From assembly GCA_964255105.1 (NCBI GenBank), contig CAXUWE010000002.1, forward strand, positions 1 to 52,827: DNA of 52,827 nt, in the 5' to 3' direction. This stretch comes from Porpidia crustulata (Eukaryota). Below, piece by piece: positions 8,428-48,763 of this stretch (positions are counted from its first letter, which is position 1; every line of letters begins with the position of its first letter). A program made the translations under genes and the position numbers. A model generated the notes under the pieces. The model had not been told where the DNA came from. It searched no databases and saw only the letters and a list, made by a program, of their open reading frames with translations.

Positions 8428-9353
8428 AGTGTTGGAGCCTCTCGCGAGAGCGCTTCGTGATCGCTACTTGGACTTTAGATTTTTAGAAAATATGACTTGG
8501 GTTGTTTAGCTGACTGTGGGAGCGTTGATGTACGGTGGCATGGCGACTTTGTATCAGCCAATCAAAGCTAAATCAAGGTGGTAAGAGTTTGTAATGCCGT
8601 GAAGTGTGGAACAGAGCGACACCTCATCGCCTTCCTACCAGTCCTGATAGGTGGGCAGTAAGGTTACCTTACTAAATGCTGAACATGAGATTTGATTAAA
8701 TACTTCGATCTTATCTACGTTCCCGCCTGTCTCCGGGGTACGAGACGCAAATCACAATTTAAGGTACTCTAGCATATAGGCACCAACTATATGAGGTTGG
8801 TGCTTACCACCCTACGATTAAACAGTAGGTACGTAGCATGGTAGATAGCGTAATTTATCAAAGGTATTAAATTGAAATGTGCCCAATGATATCGTGCGCT
8901 CACTGTCGTTTTATTTTCTAAAAATCAGCCTCAGGATTTTTCATTATCATTTCAATTGACAGCCCAATCGATGAACTTCAATGACTTTTGGCCCCCCATT
9001 GTGATTGAGGAAACGACATTACCTAAGCCAGGAACGAAAAAGGTAAGCGTGAGTAGGTACCTTGTTGTTAAACAATAACGTTCAGACCTAGTGTCTATTG
9101 TTACTGTAGGTAGCACCTCATTCAGACATCGAACTTACGTAACCCCGCAAAATTTGCTGAGTCCTAAACTTTTTGGATTTAGTAAAAGACACGGTGGGTG
9201 CGTTGGCTGGGAGGCATCGCCCTGCTTAAGATTTTTGCTCTATCCCATGTTCAAGGGGACTTTCTCTCTGAACCCCTCTGAAACAATCGCAGGATAGAGC
9301 GTGGTGTCTGTCGACTTATTGCAACCTTTTCCTCGTGGCTTACCAAAGTAGCG

Positions 9354-26844: not shown

Positions 26845-29142
26845 ATGGGCATCCGTATCACCACATGGAATGGTATAATGGTTTTACATGCTTTGGAAAT
26901 TATTGCTGATTGGAATGTTAGTAAATGGTATTCGGTAAGTCACCGTCCGTCCCTGGAGCCATCAACTTTACGTCTAGCTCCAGTAAACTCATATCAGGAG
27001 GATGTGCTACTGAATGCTTCTGTCAGAAATCCATTCGGCTACCAGCCATGGCGAGAGCAGCGTTCGTTCGCGGTAAGCTTCCCAATGTACTAAGCCTAGA
27101 CGGTCCCGAAAGCTAAACGGTGTAGGCAATGTTCGATATCCTCGAGGCTGATATCGTGATTTTTCAAGAAACCAAAATCCAGCGTAAAGATCTCGATGAT
27201 GGTATGGTGCTGGTGCCCGGATGGGATTGCTTTTTCAGCCTGCCCAAACATAAGAAAGGTACACGGGAGACATCGAGGCCCTCGGGCTATAATAGTGACA
27301 TATTCTAGGCTATTCAGGCGTAGTCGTGTACACGAGGCAGTCCGTCTGTGCCCCTATTCGCGCCGAAGAGGGTATCACAGGGCTACTATGTCCACCGAAT
27401 TCGTCTGCAGACTTCTCGGAGCTTCCAGAGGAGCAGCAAATTGGAGGCTATCCTACAAGCGCACAACTGTCCGCCTCTCCAATTGATGCCGTAACTCTAG
27501 ACTCAGAAGGACGGTGTGTGATTGTGGAATTCCCTGCTTTTGTACTCCTGGGAGTCTACTGTCCGGCGAATCGTGACGAGACAAGAGATGATTTTCGCCT
27601 CGGTTTCCTTGATCTTCTTGATGCTCGTATCCGAAACCTGATTGCAATAGGCAAGCGCGTCTTCCTGGCAGGCGACTTGAATATCTCTAGGGAAGAACTT
27701 GACACCGCAAATCCTGAGAGTGCGTTGCGCAAGCATGGTCTGACGGCGGAAGAATACGCTTCAACACCCGGGCGCCGTCTTTTCAATCAAATGCTGGAAG
27801 GTGGGAAGGTGTTTGGGGGGAAAGATGAAGGGAGGGAGAAGCCAGTTATGTGGGATATTTGCCGAGCCTTCCACCTAGGACGCAAAGGCATGTTTACATG
27901 CTGGGAGCAGAAGACCAACGCACGACCTGCAAATTGTGGTGCTCGTATCGACTACGTGCTTTGCAGTCTCGCCATGAAGGAGTGGTTCTTAGAGTCCAAC
28001 ATACAAGAGGGACTTATGGTAGTTCCCCTGCGCCCAAGTTTGTTGTGGAATGCTAATTCGAGTTGCAGGGGTCAGATCATTGTCCAGTGTATGCCATCAT
28101 CAACGATAAGGTATCCATTGACGGCGTAGAGGTGGATGTATGTGACGTTATGAATCCACCAAAGATGTTTATCGAAGGCAAACGTCAGCGGGACCATGCT
28201 AGGAAAGACTTATTGCCATTGTCGGGAAAGCTGATCCCAGAATTTGACGGTCGAAGAAACATAGGCGATATGTTTGCCCGTAAACCTTCTGTTCCACTAT
28301 TGCAAAGCGCAATCGTCTTGAAGTCGGGATTAGACGATGCTCCATCTGCAAAAAAAAGACTCGGCACGGTGACCAAAGATTCTACTCCTACAGCAAGCGC
28401 CGCCCTCTCTCCAAGCTCTGAGGGTGCAACTACGCCGGCAAGCCCATTGCCATCGCCAAATCGAAAGCGGTCTTCGACTGATGTAGCTCCCAGTAACACG
28501 CCCAAGCGCATGAAACCCGGAGTTGCGTCAAAGCCACGTTCTACAGCCGTCAAGGGGCAGCAAAGTTTACGGGGTTTCTTCACTTCAAAGGCTACTCCTA
28601 GTCCAAATACTGGGGGCAGTGTATCTGAACAACAAACCACGCCTTTGCGCTCCGAGGATGACACTCCGCACCATATCCTTGTGCCGGTTCTTAATTTGGT
28701 AGAAGGAAGCCCGACTACTAACTTGGGCAGCCAAACATGCGTAGCAACAAGCTCTACACAAGGTGTAGTCTGCGCACCTTCAATCAAATACCAGATGGAC
28801 GGCTTTGAATCTTCCGAAGCATCTCCATTGACCGGTGGTGCAAGCACATTCACAGAGAATACTGTGCATGATCCAATCGAGAGCAAAGAATCTTGGACGA
28901 AGCTTTTCACGAAGCCAGCAGCTCCCAGATGCGAAGGGCACAATGAACCGTGCATTAGCCTTCTTACAAAGAAAAGCGGCATGAACAATGGGCGGTCTTT
29001 TTGGATGTGTCCTCGACCGATTGGCCCAACTGGAGCGAAGGAAAAGAACACACAGTGGCGTTGCCAGACATTCATATGGTGCAGCGATTGGAACCCGAAT
29101 AGTCTTGAACCTGCACCCATTGGTCACGCGTACAAGTCGTGA
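26845..29142 (+). CDS. APN2: AP endonuclease / DNA lyase Apn2, multi-exon
   Basis: MGIRITTWN/VNGIR, DIVIFQETK, K/GYSGV, LDSEGRCV, GVYCPA, AGDLNIS, ARIDY, GSDHCPV. PIP-like QQSLRGFF and a C-terminal GRF zinc finger (CEGHNEPC...GRSFWMCPRP...CQTFIW). Confidence 0.97.
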
Positions 29143-30390
29143 ATATTTACCGAAGAGGATTTGCTGGCTAGCAGCATATTTGGCAGGTGACTACCTACCC
29201 TTTTATGCCCTCCCTGCAACTCTCGACAGATTATACCTGTCCTAGGTGTGTACGAGCAAGCCTCCATCTGCCAAGTATGACAGCCACTCACACATTCATA
29301 GTCAGCATTACCGCTTTGGACGCAACAAGAGTGAGGATTAATCTATGAATGGCCACGCTGGCAAGCCACGCAGCAGGACGAGTGATGGTAATGGGCCTAC
29401 AAGGGAACTTGTCAAGACCGGCTGGGAAGCCGTGACACCTTCGGTTTGGCTACTGGATACGGGATAGCTGGACCGGATAGAAGCGTTCAATGAATACTAG
29501 AGGATGAGAGTAAAGGAACAAGATTTAGATATATCGCCTGCAATATAGACGAAGCCACATGGATTTTAAAATTCTCCCTCAAGTCTAAAAATTCTCAACG
29601 CATGTACAGAGATGGTAGCAGCACGCAAGAGTGACCAGCAAAACTTCCCGATGGGTTTACAGGTTGCAGGATAGTTGTCCAGTCCCTCGGCTGCCCCCTT
29701 ACCAAAGCTATCGTGTTTCATAGAAAGATTGACCTGGGACAGATGCCGGCTATGAAAGGGCAGGCGGGTTCAGCGGAGGTAGCGCTCGATCCCTCGTACT
29801 GCCCTAAGGCGCCCCTCCGGATCACCGCGGCTACGAGATATGCCGTTATTTCCTAGGCCCTCGACCAAACGCAAGAAGATGAGTTGCGGATAGGGGCGTC
29901 TGTAGTTTTGCTCAAGGGTGATGCGCCGGTCTTGGCCTCTCCAGATCGAGCAGCGGGAGGGGTTGAGACTCTGGTGAATGTTCAATGTGCTAAGGATCTT
30001 CACGAGGGGGGGATCGCATGATCAACCCGATCGAGTCATGTCCCAAATTTTCACTCCTCTGACACTGACAATCATAGCCAATTAGCGAAGGATGGTCTTG
30101 TGTGACTTACATTGAGGTGAATGAGTTTGTATTCACCGACAGTCTGGTAAAGCACAACAAAGGAAACCAAATTACTAGCAGGCTCTTTCGAGGCTAGTGT
30201 GCATAGCCCCGACAAAACGCCTCTCGGGACAAAGGCATGTGATTTCCTAGATCGTGTTTGACGTTTGCACTGGTGATGGTGTCGGAGGTTTTTTTGCGCA
30301 ATCGGAAAGTGCTCGGATTCACTTCATGTGGGCCGGGGGTAAAAACAACGTAATTGCCCCTGATGTCCGTTTCTCTTCCAATTCCATCCA

Positions 30391-31673
30391 ATGACCGAAA
30401 TGTCCAACGAAGTGATCATGGAGGATTATGAATCCGCTTCCCAAGCTGCGGAAAGCGATGCAGACTCGGATGTTCCGTTTGATAAGGGGGATGTTCGTAG
30501 TGAGTACTCCTTGCGTCAACCCCAAGATTGGCCTGGTACTTACAGGCCGTTTCCAAGCTGGATCTCCATGCAGCCACGACTTCTTGCAAGCAATCATAAG
30601 CGTGTTGCAATCAGTCATCGTGCTCTACGAGATGGAGGATGACACTTATTACAACGCAAAAAACGAAGATACATTGGTAACGGTCAAGAAAGAGCTGCAA
30701 CGCCTTGAAGACCATCCAGAGCTGTACCCAAGCGCAGCTGAGAAATCCGAATTCTTGCAAATCGTCCATGTGCTCTGCGACTTCATGGTGGAAGAGCTGA
30801 TTCCCCACGAAAGCCAAAATTATGAATTCATCAAAAAATTCGTGGACGACTACAACAAAACGCTTATCCTGCCGGCTTACGATGGCGAGCGGACGTCGTG
30901 GCAACAAGTCTTCCACACTCGAGCGCCGGGCACAGGTTTCGATGTCGGTCAAGTGGATGGGAACTCGAGCAGCCAAATAGTGCCGTACGGTGGCTTCAAA
31001 CTCCAGCTCAACCTACGTCGCCAGTTCCAAACCGCTAAAGATGAAATGCAGCGGGTAGGCAAAGTCCCTTGCGACGTGATCAGCTATTGATTGCTAAATA
31101 CAAATCCAGCTACACGGCGATATTGTAGCATCTGGGGCATTAGGAGCGCCAACGGCAGCAGGAATGGGAATGATTGCAGGAAAGGTACGACCTGATTTAC
31201 AATCTTGGCCCAGTAGCATCGCCATCACTAACTTTCTGTAGCGCTCTAATTTCGAAGGCATAAAGATGTCTGAGTGCAAAATGCGAAAGCCTGTTGGAAC
31301 AGTTCGTAGTCTGAACCATAAGTTCTATGATTATGCTTACTTTCTACAGGTGCAGCTCCCTCTTCGAAATTTGACGGTATGTATCTCACAAGTTCCCATT
31401 TCACGATCAACGGACTCACCACTGAAAGGGATCTAAGAGAGCTCAAGAAGCCCAGGGGATGACAAGTCTCGAAGAATTGAACAGAGATTACGGTAGGGAA
31501 ATTAATATCCGTAGATTCTGATGCAATGCTAATTGCCCCGAAAAGCTATGTTGGACGGACGGCCTCCAACTCCAGAGTCTGTAAACCCAGCCTTACTTGT
31601 CCAGGATTTTGATTTACCCGCGGGATACCTGAGGCGCCTTATAGCTGCTAGAGCACCTTTCGTGTGGAGGTAA
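30391..31673 (+). CDS. Auxiliary MAT1-1 idiomorph gene (MAT1-1-7/MAT1-1-5-like by position only), about 319-335 aa
   Basis: Exons 30391-30499, 30558-31054, 31110-31184, 31242-31301, 31350-31376, 31429-31492 and 31546-31673 splice into one open frame with GT donors, branch-like motifs and AG acceptors. Lies between APN2 and MAT1-1-1, co-oriented with MAT1-1-1. No recognisable domain. Confidence 0.72.
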
Positions 31674-32107
31674 TTTAATTAGTATGCAAGCTTTAGTGTT
31701 AGGATCGAAGGCCGCAAGGTACCAATCTGTATCATGGAAGTGCAGGAGCATTTTGTCAAACATGTCTTCTAAGTGAATTGACCAGAATGATTACGAAACA
31801 GGTTTGGCTGGTCTCTTTGTGAAGTGAATAAAGAAACTTGACTCACCTCACCATTTTTTTCTCTACACTAGCCCAACACAACCATCTGGTCAAAACAACT
31901 TCAGTACGTGACCTAAAAATTCTCTTCAAAATAACATTCCCAACATAATCAAACTCTTACCGTCATCAGGTTCTCGTCACATTAGCAGGCTGTTGAGTTG
32001 ATTACTTAACTCTGCACATTGATAATCTTTTCACTGCTTTTGGCAGCTCATACCAACCTCACATTTGTCGCAATCTGATCTTACCTCCTCGACTCAAGTA
32101 AGTCAAT

Positions 32108-33177
32108 ATGAGCATCAATCTAGCTGGCCAGGATTTATCCAGTACTCACAAAGATTATCAATACACTACCACCGTATTCAATCAAGCCTCTGGATCTAAG
32201 GCCACCAAACCTTTGATAAAGTACACGGCATTTGTAAAGACCAAGATGAATGATAGCGCCGATTCTGATACTTCAGCCAAGACAACTCGACCTTTGAATT
32301 CTTGGATGGCGTATAGAAGTATGGTATCTTGGTGACTATTCCTAAGACATCCGCTGACTTTATCTCAGAGTATTACTCTATCTTGTTCACCAAATTTCAG
32401 CAGAAGGATATCTCTGGAGTCCTTACCTTCATGTGGCATAACGATCCTTTCAAGGCAAAGTGGGCTATTCTCGCAAAGGCTTATTCAGTCATCCGTGACC
32501 ATGAGGGAAAGGAGAACGCCCCTCTTGGCAAGTTCCTTCTGATCAACTCCGACTTCATCGGTATCGTGGCGCCAGGTTCTTATATGGCTGTTCTTGGCTT
32601 CGAAATCTATACGAACATCGATGGTCAGCTTATGCTTCGTCGCGAATCTATGACCAACAATTTCAGCTCACACTTGCTCACAACCGACAAATCTGTCAAC
32701 GATGTCATCAAGAATAGCTACCAGAATGGTCTTGTCACGGGCTGCCCGTCTCAACCTGCGGTCATCGGTAACGGACCAGTGCTGACAATGGCCATCTCAG
32801 CGCAGCCATCCTCATTCCATGGTACCACCAATGGAGATCATAAAGGACAGCTTGGGGACGCGAACACTGGATCCAAACAACAGACCGCATCGGGCAATGG
32901 AGGCATTCAAACTCAATTGAAAATGAGTTCAATGTTCAACCCGGAAAATCTCACTCCATTGTTGTCACATTACATCAATACCTATGGATCTAGTTCCAAA
33001 ACGGATCCAGCAGTCTCCACCTTGGGAAATAGTGTGTTCCGCCTCGAGGGAGAATATCCCTACCTTCCCGAGTTCGATCCCTCGCTCCCCAGCCAGGTGT
33101 ACAATCCATTCATTGGCAACCACTTCAATACGTTCAACATGAGTGATTGGGTAGACGAGGATGCTTTCGAACGGTGA
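32108..33177 (+). CDS. MAT1-1-1: Mating-type alpha-box transcription factor MAT1-1-1
   Basis: Alpha box RPLNSWMAYR/KYYSILFTKFQQKDISGVLTFMWHNDPFKAKWAILAKAYSVIRD, with the conserved intron at 32319-32368. A possible further intron at 33174-33220 would extend the CDS to 33350. Confidence 0.97.
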
Positions 33178-33594
33178 GTTTTCTTTGATTCTTCAAGAAA
33201 TGGAAGCTAACGTATTGCAGAAAATGCTTTACTTGGAACAAAGGCACGGGATACGCTGGGTATTTTTGTAACTCGTTCCCAATAAACATAGATCAATTGG
33301 AGAGGCTAGTAAACATGATCAACAACAATTTGATTACCAGATATTTATGAACGATGATGCCGAGAATGCATTAAAGATAGCTTACATATTCAAATAAATG
33401 ACTTGATGATAACAAATACCGAGACCATGTAACTCATTCGTATCATTGTGAGCATCCTCCAGATCAGATAATCGGAAAAGTTAAGGTGAAAAAGTAGCTT
33501 CGTTCTATTATAAGCATTCGAGAGCTTGCTGACTTGCATCAGAAGACTCAAGCTTCCGAGTCAGCTGTTCGACATATATCTCTAGGACCCTACC

Positions 33595-34036
33595 ATGCGT
33601 TTGAATAATCAAGCGCTCTTTGATCAACCCCACAACGCTCACAAGAAGCTCAACGAAGCAGAGAAGACCTTACTGGCCCGAGTGGAGCGTGTTACAAGGA
33701 CGTTGTCGAAAGCTGGTGTAATTAGAATCATAAGCCGTGATTGACAGTAATCGGCTGACTGGTCGAATACTGGTCGAAGCAAAGGAGTCCCGAATGCGTG
33801 CAGTTACGAAGATGGAACAGGTGACCCTACGCACGCTCTGGCGGATAGACCGTTCTTGCGTTGCTCGATATCTGAATCCTGGAGCGGAGAATTACAAGCC
33901 CAAGAAATCTGTTCTCATTCATTGAGATCACCGTGTTGGGCGGTCAACAAAGAAGAACGACTGGGCAATGGCTGTTTCGACTAAGATGAGGAGTTTCGAC
34001 CTGAAACAGGTCGTTGTCAATAGGATTGATGAATAA
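33595..34036 (+). pseudogene. Possible decayed coding sequence downstream of MAT1-1-1
   Basis: Protein-like frames MRLNNQALFDQPHNAHKKLNEAEKTLLARVERVTRTLSKAG and ...TLWRIDRSCVARYLNPG...VLIH*DHRVGRSTKKNDWAMAVST..., with intron-like signals (GCTGAC branch motifs) and an in-frame TGA at 33923-33925. No family recognised. Confidence 0.3.
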
Positions 34037-34974
34037 GGAGAGTTGTATGACGAACCATAAGCCGTTACGCCAATGACCTCTCATATCTTTGGTCCCTCAT
34101 ATTTTTACATTAGATGTGATAGCCTCTAAGAACCATTGAGGTCTCTGAGTTCCGATGTATTCAATTGATCATATGTGTATCACGCCCCAGAATTTAGTAT
34201 CACGAATGGGTAAGGCAGCTCGCAGCAACTATTCTGCCTTGAAGAGCGGCTTGTATGGCCAAGCTGAGCTTCTAGCCACCATGCACTGTGCGGACGAACA
34301 CTATAAAGAGAGATTTCTTCTATCATGTATCTTGCCATCAGAGAATCAAGATCAGATATTCTTTTCTACTCTAGAGATCTGCAAAGGCTTTCTTCATGGA
34401 ACGGCAGTACAGCGTATCAAACTATAATTGACCATATTCTTTCCAGGATGTTGGTATATACGATCCAAGAGTACTACGTTTTGGATTGTGGGGAGCGGGA
34501 GCCATGTAATATCGAGATGCTACACCTACGCACGATGAGCATGCTGATCTAGATTTGCGCAGTAATGGGCTTGCTGACGAATTTGTTGACATGGTGCGAG
34601 TTTCGTAGATGGCGAAGTTGCTAACCATAGTACGTCGCGCTTAATGCGAATCGCTTCTAGCGATGGCATCGCGGCTTTCCCCATTTTCCTATATACTACT
34701 ACAGAATCTCAAGTGATGCAGTCTCGTCGCGTCATTTGTTCTGCCTCCTGGTTTTGTAGGTGTTATAGTTACCCGTTATCCTACCTAGTTCTTCGGTGGG
34801 TTATCAAAAGCTTCTGTTGATTTGGTACTCTATATTCTAAAGCAGAAGACTGTCATCTATTTACATCCTGTTTCAATTTCAGACGACTTCATGATTTACT
34901 GCACTCGGTATCTCCCTCCATCACTTGAAGAATCTATTGATCTTTCTTGAGCCCCATTGATGGGACTCTATCTC

Positions 34975-35519
34975 TTCACGAGTAAGCGTCAGCCACCCGC
35001 GTTACCCTATGTCTACATATACAGCTCTTTCCCAGTGGGGAAAGCCGGGATGAACCAGAAATTCCGTAGGTAGAGTATACGCCCGTTCAAGGCAATTTTG
35101 GCTAAAAGTCTAGTTCATCTCAAATACAGAAGCGGGACCGCTCGCTGAGAAATTCACCGAATCACACGTTCACCTTCAAACGGTTTGAGGCTTCATATCA
35201 GAGCGCGAAAAGCACTTGGACAAAGTATTCCGCAGGTCTTTTGTAGATTCCTTCTCATTCTTCGTGACTGGTCGTTCTATCTTGGTTGATCTGTATCCGC
35301 TCCGAAAGCAGACAGTTGACTTGATTCCGCTCCCAGCTATTAGATTTACCTCCAGAGAAACGCTGCGGGCGACTGGTGAGAGTCATGTCAGTAGGAGCGA
35401 TGGTGGAGGGTTGTGGGTGGATTTGGTTGTTAGCAGCAGACGACAGAGTGGTGTGGAGTAGATCGATAGTTTCAGCGCCAACTTCAAAGGTAATATATGG
35501 GGCTGAGTTACATAAACAT
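34975..35519 (-). pseudogene. Possible decayed gene divergent from REV3
   Basis: CT-rich leader, ATG at 35519 and an intron-like segment 35511-35373 (GTAACT...ACTGAC...CAG). The frame RPQRFSGGKSNSWERNQVNCLLSERIQ is then broken by stops. Later FSQNCLERAYTLPTEFLVHPGFPHWERA is followed by GTATAT...GCTGAC...AAG. Confidence 0.28.
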
Positions 35520-35826
35520 AATAAGACGGTAGAATATACAACAGATGATGTGTTGTATTAAGAATCGGAATTCTTTGGAAAGTGCCGATGCCGGTAGAGA
35601 AGAAGATTGTTAGTGTTACGATGTAGTGACGGGCAGGGCTAACCGGCCCGTGATGCCCGCGTCTACATACCTTGTTATTTATAGATACCTTAGATATATC
35701 TACAATTATATTAGGCGACACCCTAACCAAGATTGAAAGCCTTCGAGTCGCAACATCTAAAATCAACATTCTAGCGCCTTGCTCCAGAAACATCACCTTG
35801 ATACCGCTGTGCCTCGCTATCTCGCC

Positions 35827-35876
35827 ATGCACTCGAAACGCTTTCATGTTGTGAGCTCCGTGCACCCAATGATGCA
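35827..35876 (+). promoter_or_regulatory. Out-of-frame upstream ATGs of REV3
   Basis: ATGs at 35827, 35869 and 35872 share one frame that is open to 36099 and overlaps REV3 exon 1. A fourth at 35846 reads ATG-TTG-TGA. All are out of frame with the ATG at 35877. Confidence 0.55.
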
Positions 35877-38800
35877 ATGGACCGCTTTCGCATCAGGCTC
35901 AACTGCATCGACTACTATCAAGCAACGCCTACTGATCTTGATCCTGACTTACCGAGAAATAATGGAAGCGCGCAACGGCAGCCGCAGCCTAAGGTACCTG
36001 TTATCAGAGTCTTTGGAGCTACCGACACAGGAGAAAAGGTTTGCGCCCACATTCACGGCGCTTTTCCCTATCTCTACATCGAACATATTGGAAGTTTAAT
36101 CCCCAACGATGGTATGCAAAGCTATTGAGAATCTCGCTGGATCTCTAACAGACTCATAGTGGAGACATGCATAAACCGACTTCAACTTTCAATCGACTAC
36201 GCTCTTAGTGTAAGCTATCGCCGTAAATTGCATAGCAATGAGACTGCTTTTGTGGCGCATATCACTCTCGTCAAGGGAGTGCCCTTTTACGGTTACCATG
36301 TTGGCTATAAGTTCTTCCTAAAGGTATACTTACTCAATCCACTTCATATAAATCGATTAGCAGATTTATTGCGGCAAGGCTTGGTATTGAAGAGATTCAT
36401 CCAGCCATACGAGAGCCACATGCAGTATATACTACAGTGGATGTGTGATTATAATTTATACGGGTGTGCTTACATTAATTGTAGTCAAGTAAGATTACGG
36501 GAGCCTGTATCCGATCAGCTGAACACAAACAGCTCTACTCATAAAAATGTTGATCGGACGATGCCTAATTCATTCATATCCAGTGCAGATGCGTTGCCGC
36601 GACAGAGCCATTGTTCTATTGAAGTCGATGTGCACGTTCAGCACATACTCAATAGGCTCGATATCGAAGCCCGTCCTTTGCACCACGATTTCCTCGAGCG
36701 GAAGAAACCCACGACACTCGATGAGAAGCTAGTGCATAGTATGGCTGGACTTTGGCGAGATGAGACAAGGAGGCGGAAGCTAAAGATAGGAGACACGCGC
36801 TCTGATAGCTCCCCTTTTCCCGCAGACGTCCTGATTTCTATGTCTGCGGACCCAAGAAATTCCCAGCCAGGCGGGTGGATACACGAGCAGGAATACAAGG
36901 CACAAATAAACAATATTGTGGAACAAGAGAGGGCGGAGACTGATGGCCAGATTTTGTCATATGAAAAATTTGTTAAGGAACCGCCATTCGAAGCATGGAT
37001 TAAGACTAGTTTCGAAAGTGTTGAGGATCTCTTTCCCCAAAATCTGGAATATCTAGCCACATTACGGAAGGCAGCTGTTATCGATGATACGGACTTACAC
37101 ACACCTGATCATCAGGAAGCAGACGTCGACGAGAACCGGCTTTTGTCGTATGAAGAACAAGACTCTTCGTTTGAACCCGATGAATACCTAGCTTACGACA
37201 TGGAAAGATCGCAGGCAAAGCATGAAGACTATTCTGCGAATCACGTTGCGAATGAGTACAATGTTGGAATAGATATTCATCCTACCGTGGGACTGGAAGC
37301 CGAGAATTTCAGTAAGCAATCACCGGATCGATTGGAGCTGGTATCTTTCGGCGAAGCCCAAGGCCCCACAAGCTCCATAGAACTCCACGCGTCAGGTATC
37401 AGAGTTGGTGGAGACTACAGCCGCATTGAGGAAGATATGTTCGAAGTACCCTCAGACTATACGAGCGACCTCGCTGTCCCTATCAAGCTTCAGGCAACAA
37501 AGGGAAAGCGAGATCCGAGACCAGAGCCTCTTCAAAGAAAGCCTAGGGTTTCACATGGTGGCCACCGGGCGAGCATTGATACATCTGAGCTTCGCTCGGG
37601 TATTCGCCCTAGCGGGAGCAATGATTACGCTGCAGCAAATAATTCTCTGAGGCCGTTCAACTCATCTGAGCGCCGTGATCTTCCTGTGCAACGAAAGGAA
37701 TTTTTAAAAAGAAGACCCTCTTCGTTCAATTCATATCTGGACAACGGAGGCGAAAGCAGCGGCGCAAGGAGCAGAAACGGCCTATCCCTTCCACTCGAGA
37801 AAGACCTGCGATCTCCCAAAATATTACATAAGCTGAGCCAGCCATATAGCTCACCATTCGAAAGCTCTCAATCCTCCAAAACTAGATCAGCGCCGTCCGA
37901 TTTATCCTATAAGTGTGACTCTGTTTTATCTAGTGTTTCAAAGGACTCTTCCATTGAACGTAAATCGCCAATATGGCTCCCCTCGACTCAATTCATTGAA
38001 GTCGCCTCAAGATTGCAGTGCGAATACAAAGCGTTAGTCACAAGAAGCGTACTGTGGTTCGCGAAAGCGCCACCTACCGCTTTGAATGTAGCGGAAGATT
38101 TCGGGATCCTCGACGTCCCTGCAATCATATACCAGGATGCTCATTACAGTCAGGAGACAGACGTGCCCGAGCGTGCGAGAGAGTATGCAGGGAAGGAATT
38201 TAAGCTCGAAAGCACTACAGTCACATATCTTCCAGAATTCGACCTAACAGGAAGAACACTTGCTTGTCGGGGAGAGAAGCCTCGCATTGTTGTGGATAGA
38301 GGAATCGAGGAAAGGTTATATCGGCAGCATAGGACAGCATGCGACTTGAAGGCTTGGGAATTGGACAAGCAGCCACCGACAAGATCAGACGTGGAACGAT
38401 GGCTTGAAGAGAGCGACATTCTGGTAGACGTTAAGGCTAAAGAGGCCCTCTTACTGGCACCAAGGGAGGAACTGTCGCAAATTGTTGGCGCAACACAGAA
38501 AGACCGCCATGGCTTCAAATATTCGCAGAAGCAGACATCAACGAGTGTTCAGCACGAAACTCAATACATGAGCATCATGAGCCTCGAGATCCATGTCAAC
38601 ACAAGAGGAGAATTAGTGCCTAATCCAGAGGAGGACGAGGTCAGCTGTGCGTTCTGGTGTATACAGTCTGACGATGAGGATCTTGAAGTGAATGGTTTCA
38701 ATGGAAGAACTCATGTTGGTGTCCTTGTCTTATCGGCAAACGGCCAGCTCGGTTGTAGGATTGCAAAGCAGACAGCTGTCGAGGTTATCGAGGAAAGTAA

Positions 38801-41105
38801 CGAGCTCGACCTTATCAACCGGATGGTAGATATCGTCAGATACTATGATCCGGACATTCTCACGGGCTATGAGGTCCATGGTGGATCTTGGGGATATATG
38901 ATCGAGCGAGCACGGTGCAAATACGATTACAATCTCTGCGACGAGTTTTCTCGAATGATGTCGCATTCGCATGGGCGCTTCGGCAAAGAAGACGATCGAT
39001 GGGGGTTTAATCATACCTCCACCATCAGGGTGACTGGGCGACACATGATCAACATCTGGCGTGCAATGAGTGGTGAACTTAATCTATTGCAGTACACGAT
39101 GGAGAATGTTGTCTTCCACCTTCTACACCGGCGCATACCCCATTTCCAATTTCCAGATTTGACTGCCTGGTATTGCAGTGATAAGCCCCGAGACCTGTCC
39201 AAGGTTCTCACTTATTACATCACACGCGTGCAGCTCGATCTCGAAATCCTGGATCAAAATGAATTGATTCCAAGGACAAGCGAGCAAGCGCGCTTGCTTG
39301 GGGTTGACTTCTTTTCAGTCTTCTCAAGAGGGTCTCAGTTCAAGGTTGAGTCTCTAATGTTTCGTATTGCGAAACCAGAGAATTACATTCTACCGTCACC
39401 GAGTCGAAAACAAGTTGGCCAGCAAAATGCGTTGGAGTGTTTACCCTTAGTAATGGAGCCGCAGAGTGCCTTCTATAATAGTCCACTTGTAGTCCTCGAT
39501 TTTCAGTCATTATACCCTAGTGTAATGATTGCATACAACTACTGTTATTCTACCTTCCTTGGTAGAGTCGTCAGTTGGCGTGGTCTCAACAAGATGGGCT
39601 TCACGGACTATCAAAGAGAGCAAAGACTTCTTGAACTCTTTGGAGACCAAATCAATATTGCCCCGAATGGCATCATGTATGCAAAGCCAGAAATAAGAAA
39701 GTCTTTGCTAGCCAAGATGTTGGGCGAGATCCTTGAAACTCGAGTGATGGTAAAAAGTGGCATGAAAATTGATAAGGATGACAAGACGTTGCAGCGTCTG
39801 CTTAACAACAGACAGCTTGCGCTGAAGCTCATTGCAAATGTTACGTACGGCTATACTTCTGCGTCGTTCTCTGGACGCATGCCGAGCTCCGAGATCGCTG
39901 ATAGCATTGTACAGACTGGCCGCGAGACGTTGGAGAAAGCTATTGCACTTATCCATTCCGTCAAGAAATGGGGAGCTGAAGTTGTTTATGGAGACACCGA
40001 TAGCCTGTTCGTTTATCTTAAGGGCCGTACAAAGGAGAAAGCTTTTGATATTGGTAACGAGATTGCGGGGACGATCACCAAGATGAACCCAAGACCCGTG
40101 AAACTTAAATTTGAAAAAGTATACTTTCCTTGCGTGCTTTTAGCTAAGAAACGATATGTGGGCTTCAAATACGAAAGCAAGGACCAAAGAGAACCCGAAT
40201 TTGATGCCAAGGGCATCGAGACGGTTCGCCGAGATGGCACTCCTGCTGAGCAAAAGATTGAGGAGAAGGTTCTGAGGATCCTCTTTCAAACTGCCGATCT
40301 TAGTCAAATCAAGTCTTACTTCCAACGCGAGTGTGCAAAGATAATGAAGGGCAAGGTATCCATCCAGGATTTTTGCTTTGCAAGGGAAGTTAAGCTCGGC
40401 ACCTATAGTGATAGAGGACCTCCCCCACCAGGGGCGCTCATAAGTACGAGGAGGATGTTAGAAGACCCTCGCGCGGAGCCCCAGTATGGCGAACGAGTTC
40501 CTTATGTTGTCATCACTGGCGCGCCAGGTGCTCGATTGATAGACCGTTGTGTCGCTCCCCACGTACTTTTGCACGACGAACACACTGAATTGGATGCTGA
40601 ATACTATATTTTGAAAAATATTATACCACCACTCGAACGAATATTGAATCTTGTAGGAGCTAATGTCAGACAGTGGTATGATGAAATGCCAAAATTCCAG
40701 CGTGTGCGCCGCGTCGAGGCCGGCGCTCTTTCGACTGGAAGAGAGATGATGATCTCGAGGAAAACTCTCGAGTCTTACATGAAATCTTCGTTGTGCTTAG
40801 TGTGCCGTGAAAGGTTAGAGGAAGAAATTGCCATATGCAGTAAGTGTCTGCGCCATGCAGACACTTCACTACTCAAACTGCAGACAAAGCTCAATAGAGC
40901 AGATCGGAAAGCCATAGACCTCGAAAATGTCTGTCGATCTTGCGCCAATTTGTCATGGGGAGAAGACGTCAAATGTGATAGTAAGGACTGTCCGGTGTTC
41001 TATTCAAGGGCAAGGAACATTTCGAGTCGGCAGAGTTTTAAAAATGTCGCAGAGCCGATCATTGGTGTTTTGGAAGAGTTGGGAAAGGAGCGGCTTAGAT
41101 GGTAG
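35877..41105 (+). CDS. REV3: DNA polymerase zeta catalytic subunit, 2 exons
   Basis: MDRFRIRLNCIDYYQ...VPVIRVFG...HIHGAFPYLY; intron 36112-36159. B-family motifs VLDFQSLYPS, QLALKLIANVTYGY, YGDTDS, KKRYVG. C-terminal CysA/CysB metal-binding motifs. Confidence 0.98.
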
Positions 41106-41510
41106 GCAGAACATCGACTCAGATATGGGCTTAGCATTGCAGGCGCAGCATCTGGTATACCCTGGGATATTTTACCGTTTGGTTTCTATCATGGAGTCTG
41201 TGGACTTCACAGGACTCACGAGGATGGCTCTTGATTCTAGCATAGTTAAATAGCACGGCGGAGCGGGTTTTCTTCTTACTTTAAGAACCGAATCTGTCAA
41301 TATCTAAAACAGAGACACCTTGAGCACTCTTGATTTTCTAGTAATCTCAGGAGATCTCTGGCCTAGAAGATCCTGTTTAGATATTCAAACACTCGAATAA
41401 TAGAGATCTGACAATGAGGATTCGCGTATCGTTGATGGCATCCATCTCTACATCTGGGTAACGTGTTTGACACACCACCATGCGCTTGAGCTTCAGGTAA
41501 TCATGACGCG

Positions 41511-44177
41511 ATGGGCAGTTTTATCACATATGTTACTATTTACATCATCGGTGGTTTGACTCTTCTTCCCATCGTTTTCTGCCTACTACTGCTACTTGTA
41601 TATTTAACATCCCCAAAGCGCCGATTCAACCCTCACCCTGCTCTGGATACTATCCACGATCCCAGCGATGACGGTCATAATATCAGCTCCCACCCAGGTG
41701 TCTCGACACTGGCAAAGCAGTTCCAGCGAGGTCACGAGCCTGATGTTGCCGCGGGCTACTTTGCGGTGTGCCGTGAGTACGTTCCCGGTGGTATCAACGG
41801 AAAACCACCGGAAAGGACTACACCGGCGGGAGCTGTAGTCGCTACGGAGAGTCCAAGTGTATATCAGAGCATGTACAGAACCATATTCGACAAGAAGCAG
41901 GCGCCAACAATAGATTCTGGTAAAGGGAATAGCAAAAATATTCGGAGAGCTCGGAACGTATTTTTCGTCGTTCTGAGACATGGTCACCTCATGCTCTATG
42001 ATGACTCCGAGCAAGTGGAAGTCAGGCATGTCATATCTCTTGAGCACCACAACGTCAGTGTATACAATGGTGGTGAGGAGATTCCCGAGGGCGAGCTATG
42101 GATTAAGAGAAATGCCATACAACTATCACGGAAACCTAGCATTGAGGACGCTTTATCTAGCACGAAGCCATTCTTCTTGTTCTCTGAGGATTGTTCCGAA
42201 AAGGAAGATTTCTACTTTGCTTTACTACAGAACCAGGATGTGAAGCCTGATGGGTTGGACAACCCACCTAGACCGTTACAATATGACGTGAAGCATATTA
42301 TCACGCTGGTACAAAAGTTGCATTCTTCCGAGGAGCAGCTACAGACCAGATGGGTCAACGCTCTACTGGGAAGATTGTTCTTGGCTCTATATAGGACCCA
42401 AGAAATTGAGGATTTTATACGGAGGAAGATAACCAAGAAAATCTCGCGGGTCAACAAGCCAGCCTTCCTCTCGGGTATCATTCTGCAAAAAATACATATG
42501 GGAGATAGCGCACCCTATATCACGAATCCTAAATTGAAAGATCTTACAGTAGACGGCGATTGCTGCGCTGAAGCAGACTTCAAGTATAGCGGCAATTTCA
42601 GATTAGAAATTGCGACCACCGCTCGCATTGACCTTGGAGCTCGCTTCAAAGCTCGGGAGGTGAATCTAATCCTCGCTGTAGTACTGAAGAAGCTCGAGGG
42701 CCATGGCCTAGTACGATTTAAACCACCTCCCAGCAATCGTATCTGGGTCGCTTTTGAAACAATGCCCGAGATTGAGATGACAATAGAGCCAATTGTCAGC
42801 TCGAGGCAGATTACATACAGCATCATTCTTCGTGCAATCGAGAGCAGGATCAGGGAGGTCATAGCTGAGACTTTGGTATTGCCCAACTGGGACGATGTAC
42901 CCTTCACCGATACCAGGCGCCAAAGATTCAGAGGAGGTATATGGGCAGGCAGAGACGACTCTGCTTCGTCTACAGTACACACCGTGATACCGGATGAGGA
43001 GGCTCTGGACGACCATGGGCATGATACTACTGCTGGCTCTGAACGTCGCTCGTCATCACATTCCAAAGACGACGACAGGACATTCAGTCTGCCTGTCCTT
43101 TCAGACACGTCAGTGCTAGGCGTTACGGCGCGGAAATCAGCCGAGCCTTCTCAAACACTCGTCAACAAGACAGAGAATGCAATTTCTACGGGGAGCCAAA
43201 GAAATCCTCAGCCCCCAAAAGCTATGAGGTCGCGATCCTTCGCGTCCGCAGCGGAGCCTCTCGTAACCAAGAACAACGCAAATGTGGACTCCGCGAAGCA
43301 TGATGCGAAAAAGAAGCAGCGCAGGGATGCTACAAGTACATTTATAGCCATCTCGAATCGCTCCCGGCCCACATCGCCCACTGAGACGCCACTTGGATCA
43401 CCCGCTGACCCTTCAATATTATGGGATAACACCACGCCTTCCGTACAATCGTCCTCCCACACATCGGTGGGAGCCAATGGCGTGGCAGATGAATCCTTGA
43501 CTGATAGTAATTTGGACAGCCCCAGTATATCTTCATTTGCTCCAGCGCATTCGAGCGCAAGCTCTCGCTCCTCGATTGTGGGCTTCGGGAATGATGAGCA
43601 GTACTCCAACTCACTGAATTCAGAGTCTCGATCGATGGGTATGTCGGAGAAAAGACAGTCACTTGCATCGATAGGAGCGGCTGCAGCTGCCGCAAAGAGT
43701 TGGGGCTGGAATGCTATAAGCCGGACTAAAGAACAGAGAGCGCTCGCAAGCCTTTCTCCTGCTGTGAACCGGGCAGGAACCCCCGACCATCCTATAGGAC
43801 GTGGACGTCCATTACCTCCCCCAGGCCAACCACTGCCGCCACCTGAGCGGCCGAGCACAAAGGTTCCGCAAAACAGTGTGCCGAGAAGGAAGCCGTTGCC
43901 TCCACCAATACTGTCAGACTGGCGACAAGATGAGACGGTTACCCGGCCTATACCGGTGCCTCCGCGTCCAACGCGAAAGACTTCGTATAATTCACTTCGA
44001 AGCAATACTGCTGACGAAGGTCTCATGGTCGTTGAAGCCCCACAGCCCGAACCAGCAACTCCAACAAACGACGACCAGCCACTTTCCGGAACTCTAGTCA
44101 GGAACACACATGATGGTGATGGTGAAGCCGAGTTGAAAAGTACGGCCAGATCCGTCTCCACTCATGACCGTGGTTGA
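41511..44177 (+). CDS. NVJ2: TM-PH-SMP membrane contact site protein (Nvj2/Tex2 family)
   Basis: N-terminal TM (YIIGGLTLLP), PH-like FFVVLRHGHLMLYDD...LWIKRNAIQL...EKEDFYFAL, SMP domain TRWVNALLGRLFL...FKPPPSNRIW...ETLVLPNWDDVPF, and a disordered tail. Confidence 0.88.
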   Translation: MGSFITYVTIYIIGGLTLLPIVFCLLLLLVYLTSPKRRFNPHPALDTIHDPSDDGHNISSHPGVSTLAKQFQRGHEPDVAAGYFAVCREYVPGGINGKPPERTTPAGAVVATESPSVYQSMYRTIFDKKQAPTIDSGKGNSKNIRRARNVFFVVLRHGHLMLYDDSEQVEVRHVISLEHHNVSVYNGGEEIPEGELWIKRNAIQLSRKPSIEDALSSTKPFFLFSEDCSEKEDFYFALLQNQDVKPDGLDNPPRPLQYDVKHIITLVQKLHSSEEQLQTRWVNALLGRLFLALYRTQEIEDFIRRKITKKISRVNKPAFLSGIILQKIHMGDSAPYITNPKLKDLTVDGDCCAEADFKYSGNFRLEIATTARIDLGARFKAREVNLILAVVLKKLEGHGLVRFKPPPSNRIWVAFETMPEIEMTIEPIVSSRQITYSIILRAIESRIREVIAETLVLPNWDDVPFTDTRRQRFRGGIWAGRDDSASSTVHTVIPDEEALDDHGHDTTAGSERRSSSHSKDDDRTFSLPVLSDTSVLGVTARKSAEPSQTLVNKTENAISTGSQRNPQPPKAMRSRSFASAAEPLVTKNNANVDSAKHDAKKKQRRDATSTFIAISNRSRPTSPTETPLGSPADPSILWDNTTPSVQSSSHTSVGANGVADESLTDSNLDSPSISSFAPAHSSASSRSSIVGFGNDEQYSNSLNSESRSMGMSEKRQSLASIGAAAAAAKSWGWNAISRTKEQRALASLSPAVNRAGTPDHPIGRGRPLPPPGQPLPPPERPSTKVPQNSVPRRKPLPPPILSDWRQDETVTRPIPVPPRPTRKTSYNSLRSNTADEGLMVVEAPQPEPATPTNDDQPLSGTLVRNTHDGDGEAELKSTARSVSTHDRG

Positions 44178-44706
44178 TAGATTTAAGAGTCGACGAATAT
44201 CAGGCATCGATCGAATTCACCAGGGTGGATTTGAATTCACAAGTAACCAACCTTTGTGAGGCGGGAGGCTGAACAGAGGTCCAGGGGCATTTACACGCAA
44301 ACTTCTACTTGTACATGATTTGTTAAGGCTCCTACTCTATCGTCAACTATGACATACTTTACGCAGTCATTGCCTTTCTGTGCTTGTCATCCCGTCCTGT
44401 CAGCTCCGGTGTAGAACACCAATAAATTAATCGCGGGCTAATTGAAGCTTGAGACAGGGTACCAAAAGTCGTCGTAAGTTTCCAAAGACATCGGTTGAAA
44501 CTCTCTTCTTTGCAACATGAGCGGTGATGAGAAGACCAATTGTTACTTTGGCGTGAAAGCTTTCTAGGTAACCTGAGCATGCAAATATTTGATCGTATCA
44601 ACAGTACAATCATCTTAAGGCCTTGTGTGTATTATCAAAGTTTCGTTGCTCAACCCTAGTACCAGGTGTTGTCAGAAGTCCTGCTCGGTGCAGATTGCTA
44701 TCTCCT

Positions 44707-44803
44707 TACTCGTTTCCACCCCTCAACGGACCACCCCAAACAAAACTAGTCGGTATAACCCTAACCCTAGGTAGAATGATCCGTTGAGGGGTGGGAACGA
44801 GTA
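44707..44803. mobile_element. 97-bp MITE-like element with 24-bp inverted ends including flanking TA
   Basis: TACTCGTTTCCACCCCTCAACGGA (44707-44730) is the reverse complement of TCCGTTGAGGGGTGGGAACGAGTA (44780-44803) with one mismatch. TA at both outer ends fits a Tc1/mariner-type target duplication. The 49-nt core contains TAACCCTAACCCT. Confidence 0.62.
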
Positions 44804-45114
44804 CGTAAGCGGCCAATTTCGAGGCTCCAGTCCAGAATGGAATATTAGATATTGACGTGGACTCACGAAAGAACCATTATTGCCTGGACGTCCGTAAATG
44901 CCCAATGAATTTACGCTTGGCTGTAGAAGATTCAAGGCGACAAGGCCATCAATGATATAAATGCCAGTCAACTGTTTGCGTAACCAGTGTTCACGGCAGG
45001 CGTCAGCTTTTTGCAGGCTCACACATTTGCCTGCCTGATATCTCCATTTCTCTTGTCGTAGGATCAACGTTAATTCTACTGCTATGCGCTCTCAGCATAT
45101 AAGTCAAAGCCGGA

Positions 45115-48100
45115 ATGTATAATCACGGTGGAAACACCACGCGCAATGTGGATATAAGCAAGTGAGGCCTCCTCATGCTTCACGAAGTTATGGAAGCTCG
45201 GAAATCATCAGCGAGCTGATATAAAGACCAGATCTGAGACCGAACTGGCCATCAATATTCGCAAAGCTACGAGTATAGGTCAGCGATACCTAGATCTTTG
45301 ACCATTACAAGAAGCCAAGCTAATCCCTCTATCTTGCTCAGAGGAAACTGCCCCCAAACGTAGATTATTCGCATCTATAGCCTATGAAGGAGGCCCTGAG
45401 CTGATAGATACTAGGCAAACACGTTCGCGCCTCTATTGTTTACACATGGGACCACAAGTCTTCGCAGTCGTTTTGGGCGGGCATGAAAGTGTGGGTCTAC
45501 AAGAGCTCGACTCTGTTGAGTCCCCCAAAGGTGCACTTGATCAGACCATGCTGACCGAGCTCTTATTCTTTCCTTTCTAGGCAGCCTATCCTTGCCGACG
45601 AAGTCCAGACCTTCAAAGCCCTGATCACCGTGCACAAGGTAATGCAGGAAGGGCATCCAATTGCAGTCAAGGAGGCCCAGGGGAACGTTAATTGGCTGGA
45701 AAGCTTGACAAGAGGAGTTTCGGGAGAAGGCCCTAGAGGTTCGTTTTTATAAAGCTCTATAGCTATCCCGAGGATGAGAGTTCTTCATAGGAAAAATCCC
45801 ATACAACAGGGCGAGACTGACAACGTGATTAGGATACGGACCTCTAATCAGAGAATATGTCTATTTCCTGCTTGCAAAACTGGCGTTCCACAGGCAGCAT
45901 CCTGAGTTCAACGGTCTCTTCGAGTACGAAGAATATATAAGCCTGAAATCGATTAACGATCCCAATGAAGGATATGAGACAATATCTGATCTGATGACTC
46001 TTCAGGATCAGATAGATTCCTTCCAAAAACTCATTTTCTCCCATTTCCGAAGTGGCGCAAATAACGAGTGCAGAATATCAGCATTAGTACCGTTAGTCCA
46101 AGAAAGCTATGGTATTTATAAATTCGTTACAAGCATGCTTCGAGCAATGCACACCACGACCGGAGATAATGAGGCTCTTGAGCCTTTGCGCGGGAGATAT
46201 GACACACAACACTACCGACTACTCAAATTCTACTATGAGTGCTCTAATCTTCGATATCTGACTAGTTTAATTACAGTGCCTAAGCTACCGCAAGAGCCAC
46301 CCAGCTTACTTGCAGAGGACGAAGACAAACCAGCTTTGCCTAAGCGACCAGCTAAGGAACTCGAGGTCAGGGATGCTCCAACATCAACGCCTCCTGTGAC
46401 GTTAGCACGAGATCCTGAACCCATCAATGAATTTTGGAAAGTTGAACAGCGACGGCTGCAGGATGAATACGATGCGGAACAGCGAAGGTTGCAAGAACAG
46501 TGGAACCAACAACAATACCAGCAACAATTAGCACAGCAGCAAGCAGAGCGAGAGTTTGAGGAACAGCGGCGCTTGCAAGCTGAGCAGCAACAGTTAGCCC
46601 AAGAACAATTGATGCGTGACCAATACCAACAGCAGACGCAAGGCCGAATGGCTGAATTAGAACGAGAAAATCTCAATGCTCGAGCACAATACGAACAAGA
46701 CCAGCTAATGCTCGAGCAGTATGATCGAAGGATGAAAGATCTTGAGAATCAACTAATTCAATTGAACAACAATTTCGGTCAACAGACTTCTTCCAAGGAT
46801 GACCAAATTCGGGCACTGCAAGAACAGGTCAATACGTGGCGTAGCAAGTACGAAGCCCTGGCAAAGCTGTATTCCCAGCTACGCCATGAGCATCTGGATC
46901 TCTTGCAGAAGTTCAAGGGAGTTCAACTGAAAGCCGCTTCAGCTCAAGAAGCAATCGACAAGCGAGAAAAATTGGAGCGCGAGATCAAGACGAAGAATCT
47001 GGACCTTGCGGATATGATCCGTGAGAGAGACCGAGCTCTACACGAGAAAGACCGATCCACTGGAGGACATAGAGAAGAGATCGAGAAACTCAAGCGCGAG
47101 CTTCGCTTTGCTCTCGAGAAGGCGGAAAATATTGAACGTGCGAAGGGCAATGAGTTGTCTTCCATGCTATCAAAGTACAATAGGGAAATGGCGGACCTCG
47201 AGGAAGCACTACGAAATAAGACCCACGCTCTGGATGATGTTCATTCGAAATTTGGAGAGCGAGACGGCAATCTCGAGCGCCAGTTGCGCGATAAGGAAGA
47301 AGAGCTTGAGATCTACAAATCAGGGATGGACCAGACTTTGCTTGAGCTTAACGAATTAAGAATGAACGGCGGGGATACCGACAAGGCCTTCGATGCCCAA
47401 ATTGATCAAGTCCTCCTGGGCAACATCCAGAAGATCAACGACATAATCGATTCTGTCCTACAAAGTGGTGTGCAGCGTGTGGATGATGCGCTCTACGAGC
47501 TTGACTCCTCGATGCAAGCAGGGAACCAAAATGCTTCAGCACCATATGTATTATCACAAATCGAAAGAGCATCGTCAAGTGCCACCGAATTCTCCACTGC
47601 TTTCAACAACTTCATTGCAGACGGACCCGATAGTCCCCATGCTGCGATTATCCGTACGATCAATGTCTTTGCTAGCTCCATTGCAGACGTCCTCAGTAAC
47701 ACTAAAGGACTCACTCGATTCGCTACAGAAGAGAAGAATGCAGATCAGCTCATAAACGCTGCTCGGGAATCAGCACTCTCTACTGTCAAATTTTTTCGTA
47801 ACCTCCAATCTTTCCGTCTCGAAGATTTAGAAGCTACTAGGAGAACAGATGTTGTCATCAATAGCAATCACGAAGTCCTGATGAACCTCCAGAAACTCTC
47901 GAAACTTGCCGATGTTTTTGCTCCTAAGTCAAACAAAATCACCAACGCTTCTGGAGATCTCGGGGACCTTGTAGATCGCGAGCTCATTAATGCTGCGAAA
48001 GCCATTGACGCTGCTGCTGCGCGCCTAGACAAGATGATGAAGGAACCCAGAGACGGTTACAGTACCTACGAGCTTCGTATCCACGACAGTATTCTCGAAT

Positions 48101-48763
48101 CCGCCATTGCCATTACTAACGCTATCGCTCAATTGATCAAGGCTGCTACTGCTTCCCAGCAGGAAATCGTCAAAGAAGGCCGTGGCTCTTCGTCCCGGAC
48201 GGCCTTTTACAAGAGAAATAATCGTTGGACCGAAGGCCTCATCTCCGCAGCTAAAGCCGTTGCTTCCTCCACTAATACACTTATAGAGACTGCTGATGGC
48301 GTCATCAGCGGTAGGAATAACCCGGAGCAGCTGATTGTGGCAAGTAACGATGTCACAGCGTCCACTGCACAGCTTGTGGCCGCTAGTAGGGTTAAGGCCA
48401 ACTTTGGAAGCCGAACGCAGGACAAACTCGAAGCAGCGAGCAAGGCAGTCGGTAAGGCCTGCAGAAGCCTAGTAAGGCAAGTACAAGATATCGTTGCCCA
48501 GAAAAACAAGGATGAGGGTGACGATGTGGATTATGGTGCATTGAGCGGGCATGAGTTCAAGGTCCGAGAGATGGAACAGCGGGTCAGTAGAATCTCAGGC
48601 AATTTTCTCTCCGCTGCAGGAACACAGTACGCGCTTGGCCGAAGTTGGATTTTCGCTAATATTCTACTCCATACAGGTCGAGATTGTCCAATTGACGAAT
48701 AGGCTCGATCAAGCAAGACTAAGGTTGGGCGAAATGCGAAAGATCTCGTACCAGGAAGATTAG
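45115..48763 (+). CDS. SLA2: Endocytic adaptor Sla2/End4 (ANTH, coiled coil, I/LWEQ), multi-exon
   Basis: SETELAINIRKATSI/EETAPK/RKHVRASIVYTWDHKS, QPILADEVQTFKALITVHKVMQEGHP, FYKRNNRWTEGLISAAKAVA, STAQLVAASRVKA. Ends RLGEMRKISYQED-TAG. Confidence 0.97.

Follow-up and report, generated by a model that had tools for sequence, protein, structure and literature searches.

Introduction

In Letharia, each mating-type (MAT) idiomorph carries one auxiliary gene, MAT1-1-7 and MAT1-2-14, respectively, and the accessible sections of the same publication state that the same MAT1-1-7 is present at the same location in the MAT1-1 idiomorph of most Lecanoromycetes, with gene models that vary at the C-terminus (PMC10512270). 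According to the available parts of two further publications, MAT1-1 and MAT1-1-7 are situated between Apn2 and Sla2 in Cladonia grayi (PMC6652019), and in Stereocaulon MAT1-1-7 is followed downstream by MAT1-1-1 in the same direction (PMC11515122). Every MAT1-1 Lecanoromycete examined in an earlier survey had an auxiliary gene; Figure S1 of that survey gives the order APN2, hypothetical protein, MAT1-1-1, SLA2, and the auxiliary genes listed in its Table S3 are 681-2974 bp long with 1-7 introns (PMC6414310). Here we describe a gene located at 30391-31673 (+) in a 52,827-nucleotide stretch of the Porpidia crustulata genome (contig CAXUWE010000002.1, positions 1-52,827, assembly GCA_964255105.1; hereafter the window), which we regard, with a probability of about 0.85, as the orthologue of the lichen-fungus auxiliary MAT1-1 gene published as MAT1-1-7.

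Two other groups of auxiliary genes are relevant for comparison. The authors of the Letharia study considered the lichen gene homologous to the Eurotiomycete genes MAT1-1-4/MAT1-1-9 and to MAT1-1-8 from Diplodia (bioRxiv 10.1101/2020.12.18.423428, appendix). MAT1-1-2 of Sordariomycetes (SMR1, mat A-2, SmtA-2) is described, in the accessible sections of PMC3961304 and PMC3125171, as having invariant His/Pro/Gly (HPG) and Pro/Pro/Phe (PPF) residues, and in those sections together with the available part of PMC6562746 it is reported to be required after fertilisation and not in mate recognition.

Position, distribution and structure of the gene

The gene was assigned to MAT1-1-7 because its position, taxon range and structure agree with those of the published gene. 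In the window, APN2 (27299-29142, +), the gene itself and MAT1-1-1 (approximately 32102-33177, +) follow each other on one strand, which is the position expected of MAT1-1-7, while homologues fill the same slot between APN2 and MAT1-1-1 in other lichen fungi and share five of the six intron positions with the window gene. Its span of 1283 bp with 6 introns lies within the published range of auxiliary genes. The likeness to MAT1-1-7 of Letharia, Cladonia and Stereocaulon ('Aux_MAT1-1' in PMC6414310) comprises the APN2/MAT1-1-1 slot, the orientation shared with MAT1-1-1, the lack of a known domain, a length of approximately 1.1-1.4 kb, several short introns, a conserved large exon early in the gene, a variable C-terminus and the lichen-forming hosts. 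No difference was seen in gene structure; the loci differ in that REV3 and a PH-domain gene precede SLA2 (+) in the window, whereas SLA2 (-) comes after MAT1-1-1 in six loci recovered from metagenomes. A previous sequence-only reading of this DNA had suggested that the gene may be a divergent member of the intron-rich auxiliary genes found beside MAT1-1-1 (MAT1-1-2, -4, -5 and -7), and MAT1-1-7 proved to be the literature name for the gene at this position. The Pfam scan also bore out its statement that neither an alpha box nor an HMG box is present, and no family matched the gene at E <= 0.1.

Comparison of exon 2 (169 aa) with 1.84 billion representative proteins gave, far beyond what chance would yield, 81 matches at E <= 1e-3, of which 18 reached E <= 1e-10 and two reached E <= 1e-30, the window product being counted in each case; the best of the 80 other representatives had an E-value of 1.3e-46 and 50% identity. 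Thirty of the matches were looked up and 12 of these bear an organism name, all of them from lichen-forming fungi (11 Lecanoromycetes and Candelaria) and all annotated as 'hypothetical protein'. The genera are Pseudocyphellaria, Blastenia, Villophora, Letrouitia (two), Agyrium, Gyalolechia, Lecanora, Candelaria, Xylographa and Gallowayella, and Gyalolechia is represented once more by a cluster member. A profile search, in which 8000 candidates were scored, gave 10 matches and contributed two proteins from Elasticomyces, a rock-inhabiting fungus; by the NCBI taxonomy the named family members span Lecanoromycetes, Candelariomycetes and Dothideomycetes. The family found here reaches the Dothideomycetes through Elasticomyces, whereas no sequence from a Eurotiomycete or from Diplodia was among the matches bearing names. 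Longer relatives of exon 2 were not found by word-indexed search, and the ESM Atlas returned unnamed or unrelated clusters only, with low recognition. In two proteins of Teloschistales lichens, P0029 (630 aa) and P0071 (651 aa), the exon 2 domain is N-terminal and an alpha box lies downstream in one model; these fusions are most likely annotation errors, in which the gene caller merged adjacent genes of the same strand.

A pattern scan in which the family's invariant motif was searched for in metagenome contigs yielded 138 candidate stretches, 14 of which were confirmed as relatives. By their match values these 14 loci represent six distinct sequences (L001/2, L003-6, L007, L008/9, L010-12 and L013/14). 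Searches with the window neighbours by tblastn revealed the order APN2 (+), homologue (+), MAT1-1-1 (+) in eight of the loci, and in two others APN2 and the homologue are followed by the contig end before MAT1-1-1. In 10 of the 14 loci the window APN2 shares 47-84% identity with the gene that lies upstream of the homologue, and in six loci SLA2 (-) directly follows MAT1-1-1 within approximately 1-2.5 kb. The remaining four loci (L003-L006, one species, >99% mutually identical) have neither APN2 nor MAT1-1-1 as a neighbour. The ratio of dN/dS in exon 2 was 0.32 between L011 and L013, which means that exon 2 is under purifying selection in the relatives, not a tight one; judged from these sequences, it is constrained yet fast-evolving.

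Relatives beside HMG-box genes

From its position and from the published Letharia and Cladonia idiomorphs we infer that the gene lies inside the MAT1-1 idiomorph. Several observations weigh against identifying it with MAT1-1-7. None of the 30 matches looked up carries the name MAT1-1-7. PMC6414310 in its main text and PMC11515122 in its Discussion put the gene 'between MAT1-1-1 and SLA2', a wording in conflict with the figure and the results of those same papers and with the metagenome loci. The family also shows no strict link to the alpha box: in L003-L006 the family gene stands tail to tail with an HMG-box gene that is split by an intron, and an alpha box was not found within 6 kb (best remnant E 1.5). 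Finally, an HMG-box gene sits between APN2 and the homologue in L013/L014.

These loci bring up the most serious alternative, according to which the gene belongs to a flank shared by both mating types and is MAT-linked rather than a MAT1-1 gene. Relatives adjoin MAT1-2-1-type HMG genes in two of the six distinct loci (L003-L006 and L013/L014), and the L003-L006 gene falls into the same well-supported clade as the window gene (11 rows, SH-aLRT 99). On the other side, the accessible sections on Letharia, Cladonia and Stereocaulon report the gene inside the MAT1-1 idiomorph, and another gene, MAT1-2-14, inside MAT1-2; L013/L014 has MAT1-1-1 as well, and as an apparently fused locus it is uninformative on idiomorph specificity; and idiomorphic genes typically evolve fast, as this one does with its 50% identity to the nearest relative. 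Considering both sides, a shared flank appears improbable, and the gene is best regarded as the MAT1-1-7 orthologue.

The arrangement of these loci was as follows. In L006 (5953-9291) the family gene (+) faces an HMG-box gene at 8256-9291 (-), with no APN2 or SLA2 within 6 kb, and the flanks of L003-L006 are gene-poor and contain a remnant of a Tf2-type retroelement. In L013/L014 (1-12453), APN2 (+) extends to 1730 and is followed by a MAT1-2-1-type, intron-split HMG-box gene at 2674-3656 (-), the homologue at about 5600-7200 (+), MAT1-1-1 with its alpha box at 7521-8681 (+) and then SLA2 (-). This gene content gives L013/L014 the appearance of a fused MAT locus of the homothallic type. L011, the closest relative of L013, is without the HMG gene. 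Primary homothallism was not reported in any of 39 Lecanoromycetes (PMC6414310).

Gene model and splicing

The splice model, with coordinates read from the sequence, consists of 7 exons and 6 introns at 30391-31673 (+), with 972 nt of coding sequence including the stop codon and a product of 323 aa. The introns are 46, 55, 57, 48, 52 and 53 nt long and all six are bounded by GT..AG. Exon 1 (30391-30499) begins with ATG, encodes the acidic N-terminus and ends in '...FDKGDVR' plus one base (phase 1). Intron 1 (30500-30545, 46 nt, GTGAGT...TACTTACAG) has a second in-frame acceptor at 30557/30558. Exon 2 (30546-31054) encodes the conserved family domain in 169 in-frame codons from 30548 and includes 'ELQRLEDHPELYPS' and 'RTSWQQVFHTRAPGTGF'; intron 2 (31055-31109, 55 nt, GTAGGC...CAG) with a branch-like TGCTAA separates it from exon 3 (31110-31184), which comprises 25 Gly/Ala-rich codons and is open and in frame between canonical splice sites. 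Intron 3 (31185-31241, 57 nt, GTACGA...CACTAAC...TAG) is followed by exon 4 (31242-31301), whose '...EG-x-K/R...T' has the counterpart '[ED]G[NT]xRxxxT' in the relatives. After intron 4 (31302-31349, 48 nt, in frame, GTTCGT...CTACAG) comes the 27-nt micro-exon 5 (31350-31376), which encodes 'VQLPLRNLT'; the relatives have 'L-x-P-x-x-A/T' and the Agyrium protein P0041 has 'QLPPHHTA' at this place. Intron 5 (31377-31428, 52 nt, GTATGT...AAAG) leads to exon 6 (31429-31492), which encodes 'GS...TSLEELNRDY' plus one base; the six other loci all have 'GS...[DS]LExLNxDF' here, and their donor is likewise of phase 1. Following intron 6 (31493-31545, 53 nt, GTAGGG...TGCTAAT...AAAG), exon 7 (31546-31673) encodes 'AMLDGRPPTPE...APFVWR' and ends with a TAA stop.

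This model reproduced from the sequence the continuous frame over seven exons that had been proposed by the sequence-only reading, and all peptide strings quoted there are present in the 323-aa translation. The exon chain was the same, while the length of 319 aa given earlier requires the acceptor lying 12 nt downstream (30557/30558). The start of exon 2 at 30546 is more likely, because the residues lost with the downstream acceptor are conserved in the relatives ('FQAG' before 'SPCS' corresponds to 'FQPGSACS' in L001 and 'SQAGSACS' in L004), and 323 aa is thus preferred. Retention of the 48-nt intron 4, from which a 335-aa product had been derived, found no support in the relatives: since their read-through runs into stop codons, splicing of this intron is the conserved form, and its donor is conserved as well.

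Comparison with the metagenome loci showed that a GT donor ends exons 1, 2, 4, 5 and 6 at the same codon position and in the same phase in all seven sequences (the window and the six distinct loci). The exon ends were matched by eye and post hoc in six-frame translations; the agreement in phase is exact. The donor of exon 1, A|GTGAGT, follows a '[KRNEG]-G-x-x-x' peptide at the same offset in 7/7 sequences, and at the column where window intron 2 starts, the unspliced database open reading frames (ORFs) of the relatives all have V (GTx). Counterparts of the end of exon 1, of exons 2, 4, 5 and 6, and of the start of exon 7 were recognized in the six-frame translations of the six loci, and L001, L004 and L013 share the exon 7 start '[AP][MG]L[SD][GR]R'. 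The 323-aa model is also collinear with the annotated 323-aa protein P0041 of Agyrium rufum over all conserved exons including the C-terminus. For exon 3, no counterpart was recognized in the six-frame translations of the six other loci; it is the least certain exon, and its skipping would also keep the frame.

These data bear on a second alternative, namely that the gene is decaying or mis-modelled, exon 2 being real and the downstream micro-exons an artefact of frame-stitching. The lack of an exon 3 counterpart elsewhere and the variation of published models at the C-terminus (PMC10512270, accessible sections) speak for it; it is nevertheless very unlikely, as the six other loci repeat the peptides of exons 4-7, their donors agreeing in position and phase, the Agyrium protein has these peptides too, the splice sites are all canonical, the frame is open to the stop, and the family-invariant residues are kept. 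The assembly itself is supported by Logan contigs of the one sequencing run found to contain the locus, which cover 28500-37626 and 37620-46500 without any difference; this run is probably the source of the assembly and not an independent set of data.

The remaining view, also taken earlier, that the gene is an orphan of this lineage or represents an entirely new kind of MAT gene could draw on the lack of a Pfam family and on the label 'hypothetical protein' of all named relatives, and it is refuted, practically without remainder, by the 80 other representatives at E <= 1e-3 from three fungal classes, the synteny with APN2 and MAT1-1-1 kept in eight of the 14 metagenome loci, the shared intron donors and positions, and the literature that describes a gene at this place.

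The conserved domain

Three parts make up the protein: an acidic tail at the N-terminus, a conserved helical domain (approximately 165 residues) and a C-terminal part that is encoded by micro-exons and shows little conservation; acidic first exons were also seen in L001, L009, L011 and L013. Alignment of 19 sequences revealed the invariant columns E49, R52, L53, L59, F69, R115, W118, Q120, H123, P127 and G130, with G128 near-invariant. The window protein keeps all family-invariant residues, and its motif reads H-T-R-A-P-G-T-G-F. In the AF2 model of the exon 2 domain (mean pLDDT 84.6) five helices are predicted; the first invariant patch, 'ELxRLxxHPELFPS', corresponds to the end of helix 2, and the second, 'RxxWQQFLHxxAPGSG', to helix 4 and the following loop. 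A sequence profile search of the PDB gave no match at E <= 1, and Foldseek gave none against the PDB at E <= 0.001. The domain is therefore predicted, with a confident model, to be a helical bundle without a specific solved relative. No DNA-binding domain was found in the protein.

A possible relation to MAT1-1-2

Eighty-five members of the family alignment were scanned against Pfam. Four of them matched PF17043 ('Mating type protein 1-1-2'; gathering cut-off 26.3 bits) with E-values of 0.013-0.12 and scores of 12.5-15.6 bits: one protein each from Pseudocyphellaria and a further relative, and both proteins from Elasticomyces. Each of these matches spans the WQQ..APG motif, with the invariant W at profile positions 96-99. 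The family residues H123, P127 and G130 may correspond to the HPG residues given in the published descriptions of MAT1-1-2. Like MAT1-1-2 of the Sordariomycetes, the family consists of auxiliary genes of MAT1-1 without a DNA-binding domain, and it has a short motif of invariant His, Pro and Gly, in the version H-x-x-A-P-G, over which the weak PF17043 matches are collinear. It differs from MAT1-1-2 by an Ala at the first Pro of 'PPF', and function has been tested for MAT1-1-2 alone.

Homology to MAT1-1-2 is opposed by the PF17043 scores, the best of which (15.6 bits) is far under the 26.3-bit cut-off, and by the window exon, which does not match PF17043 at E <= 1, as well as by six further members, likewise without a match. 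The unrelated DUF6852 was likewise matched by four members, and the fold matches are generic (three-)helical bundles, the best of them with a Z of 8.2 (VIA-align wide), under the level that is meaningful for helical models. A paper linking the family to MAT1-1-2 was not found in the open-access literature, subscription reviews being outside that search.

Three further Pfam entries were considered and their matches judged to be due to chance: the above-mentioned DUF6852 (three of the four members lie in the clade that includes the named Teloschistales-type lichens, and the tree did not contain the fourth), DUF7708 (two members) and DUF7176 (window exon, E 0.18).

Taken together, the sequence comparison suggests that the family could be a distant homologue of Sordariomycete MAT1-1-2, to which we give somewhat less than an even chance. 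A similarly tentative extension would make the MAT1-1-7 family the counterpart of MAT1-1-2, with W-Q-Q-x-x-H-x-x-A-P-G as the HPG motif, and an ancient companion of the alpha box; it would not be strictly alpha-box-bound, because it stands beside a MAT1-2-1-type gene in two lichen-metagenome species. By analogy, and with the odds approaching even at best, the protein may be a non-DNA-binding, protein-binding helper of post-fertilisation sexual development like MAT1-1-2, and maybe a distant relative of it. This mode of action is proposed because of the putative homology to MAT1-1-2: the protein itself would not bind DNA, its invariant patches would form a binding surface, and by binding proteins it would assist sexual development once fertilisation has taken place.

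Neighbouring genes in the window

The gene order was derived from Pfam matches on long open frames and identifies the window as a Pezizomycotina mating-type region. CIA30 lies at 21.8 kb. APN2 (DNA lyase), modelled without its 5'-end, matches Exo_endo_phos (2.7e-11) and a GRF zinc finger (8.5e-4). In MAT1-1-1 the alpha box is split by an intron near 32330 and the start codon is not fixed; MATalpha_HMGbox was matched (1.8e-27) by the ORF at 32317-33177, and 'TRPLNSWMAYRS' is within the ORF at 32102-32335. A 2.9-kb spacer without Pfam matches (33178-36128) follows, and then REV3 (DNA polymerase zeta, 36.1-41.1 kb, +), a PH-domain gene (41.5-44.2 kb, +), SLA2 (45.8-48.7 kb, +) and SLU7 (49.3-50.8 kb). 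Neither an HMG-box gene nor a trace of one turned up in the window (best E 0.33).

The region at 33178-48702 constitutes a rearranged flank, in which the spacer, REV3 (+) and the PH-domain gene (+) part MAT1-1-1 from SLA2 (+). An inversion of the SLA2-PH-REV3 block would account for SLA2 (+) in the window versus SLA2 (-) in the metagenome loci. Neither the spacer at 29143-30390 nor that at 33178-36128 showed similarity to the 14 loci by tblastx and blastn.

Far from its alpha box, the MAT1-1-1 protein has an acidic/aromatic C-terminus (window 33040-33177), 'EFDP..PSFVFDPF.GN.FD.F.MSD', and this tail is strongly conserved in all eight aligned sequences, including frames of L001, L007, L009, L011 and L013. 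At 7385-8761 of L007 the alpha-box intron of MAT1-1-1 is in frame and stop-free, and the gene is one 459-codon frame.

Conclusions

By itself, the identification of the Porpidia gene is routine annotation, adding one species to those with a known mating-type gene of lichen fungi. It provides a seven-exon model, validated by comparison, where the published models of the gene conflict at the C-terminus, and it defines a conserved helical domain and a pair of invariant patches in a family that lacks a Pfam entry and is called 'hypothetical' in all named records. Two observations go beyond the literature searched and may be taken as leads: the weak PF17043 matches over the invariant motif, and the presence of the family beside a MAT1-2-1-type HMG gene in two metagenome species. 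If the counterpart relation to MAT1-1-2 were true, one helical auxiliary protein would have stood beside the alpha-box gene since the early Pezizomycotina, and if the link holds, what is known from Podospora, Neurospora and Sordaria would transfer to fungi that are almost intractable genetically.

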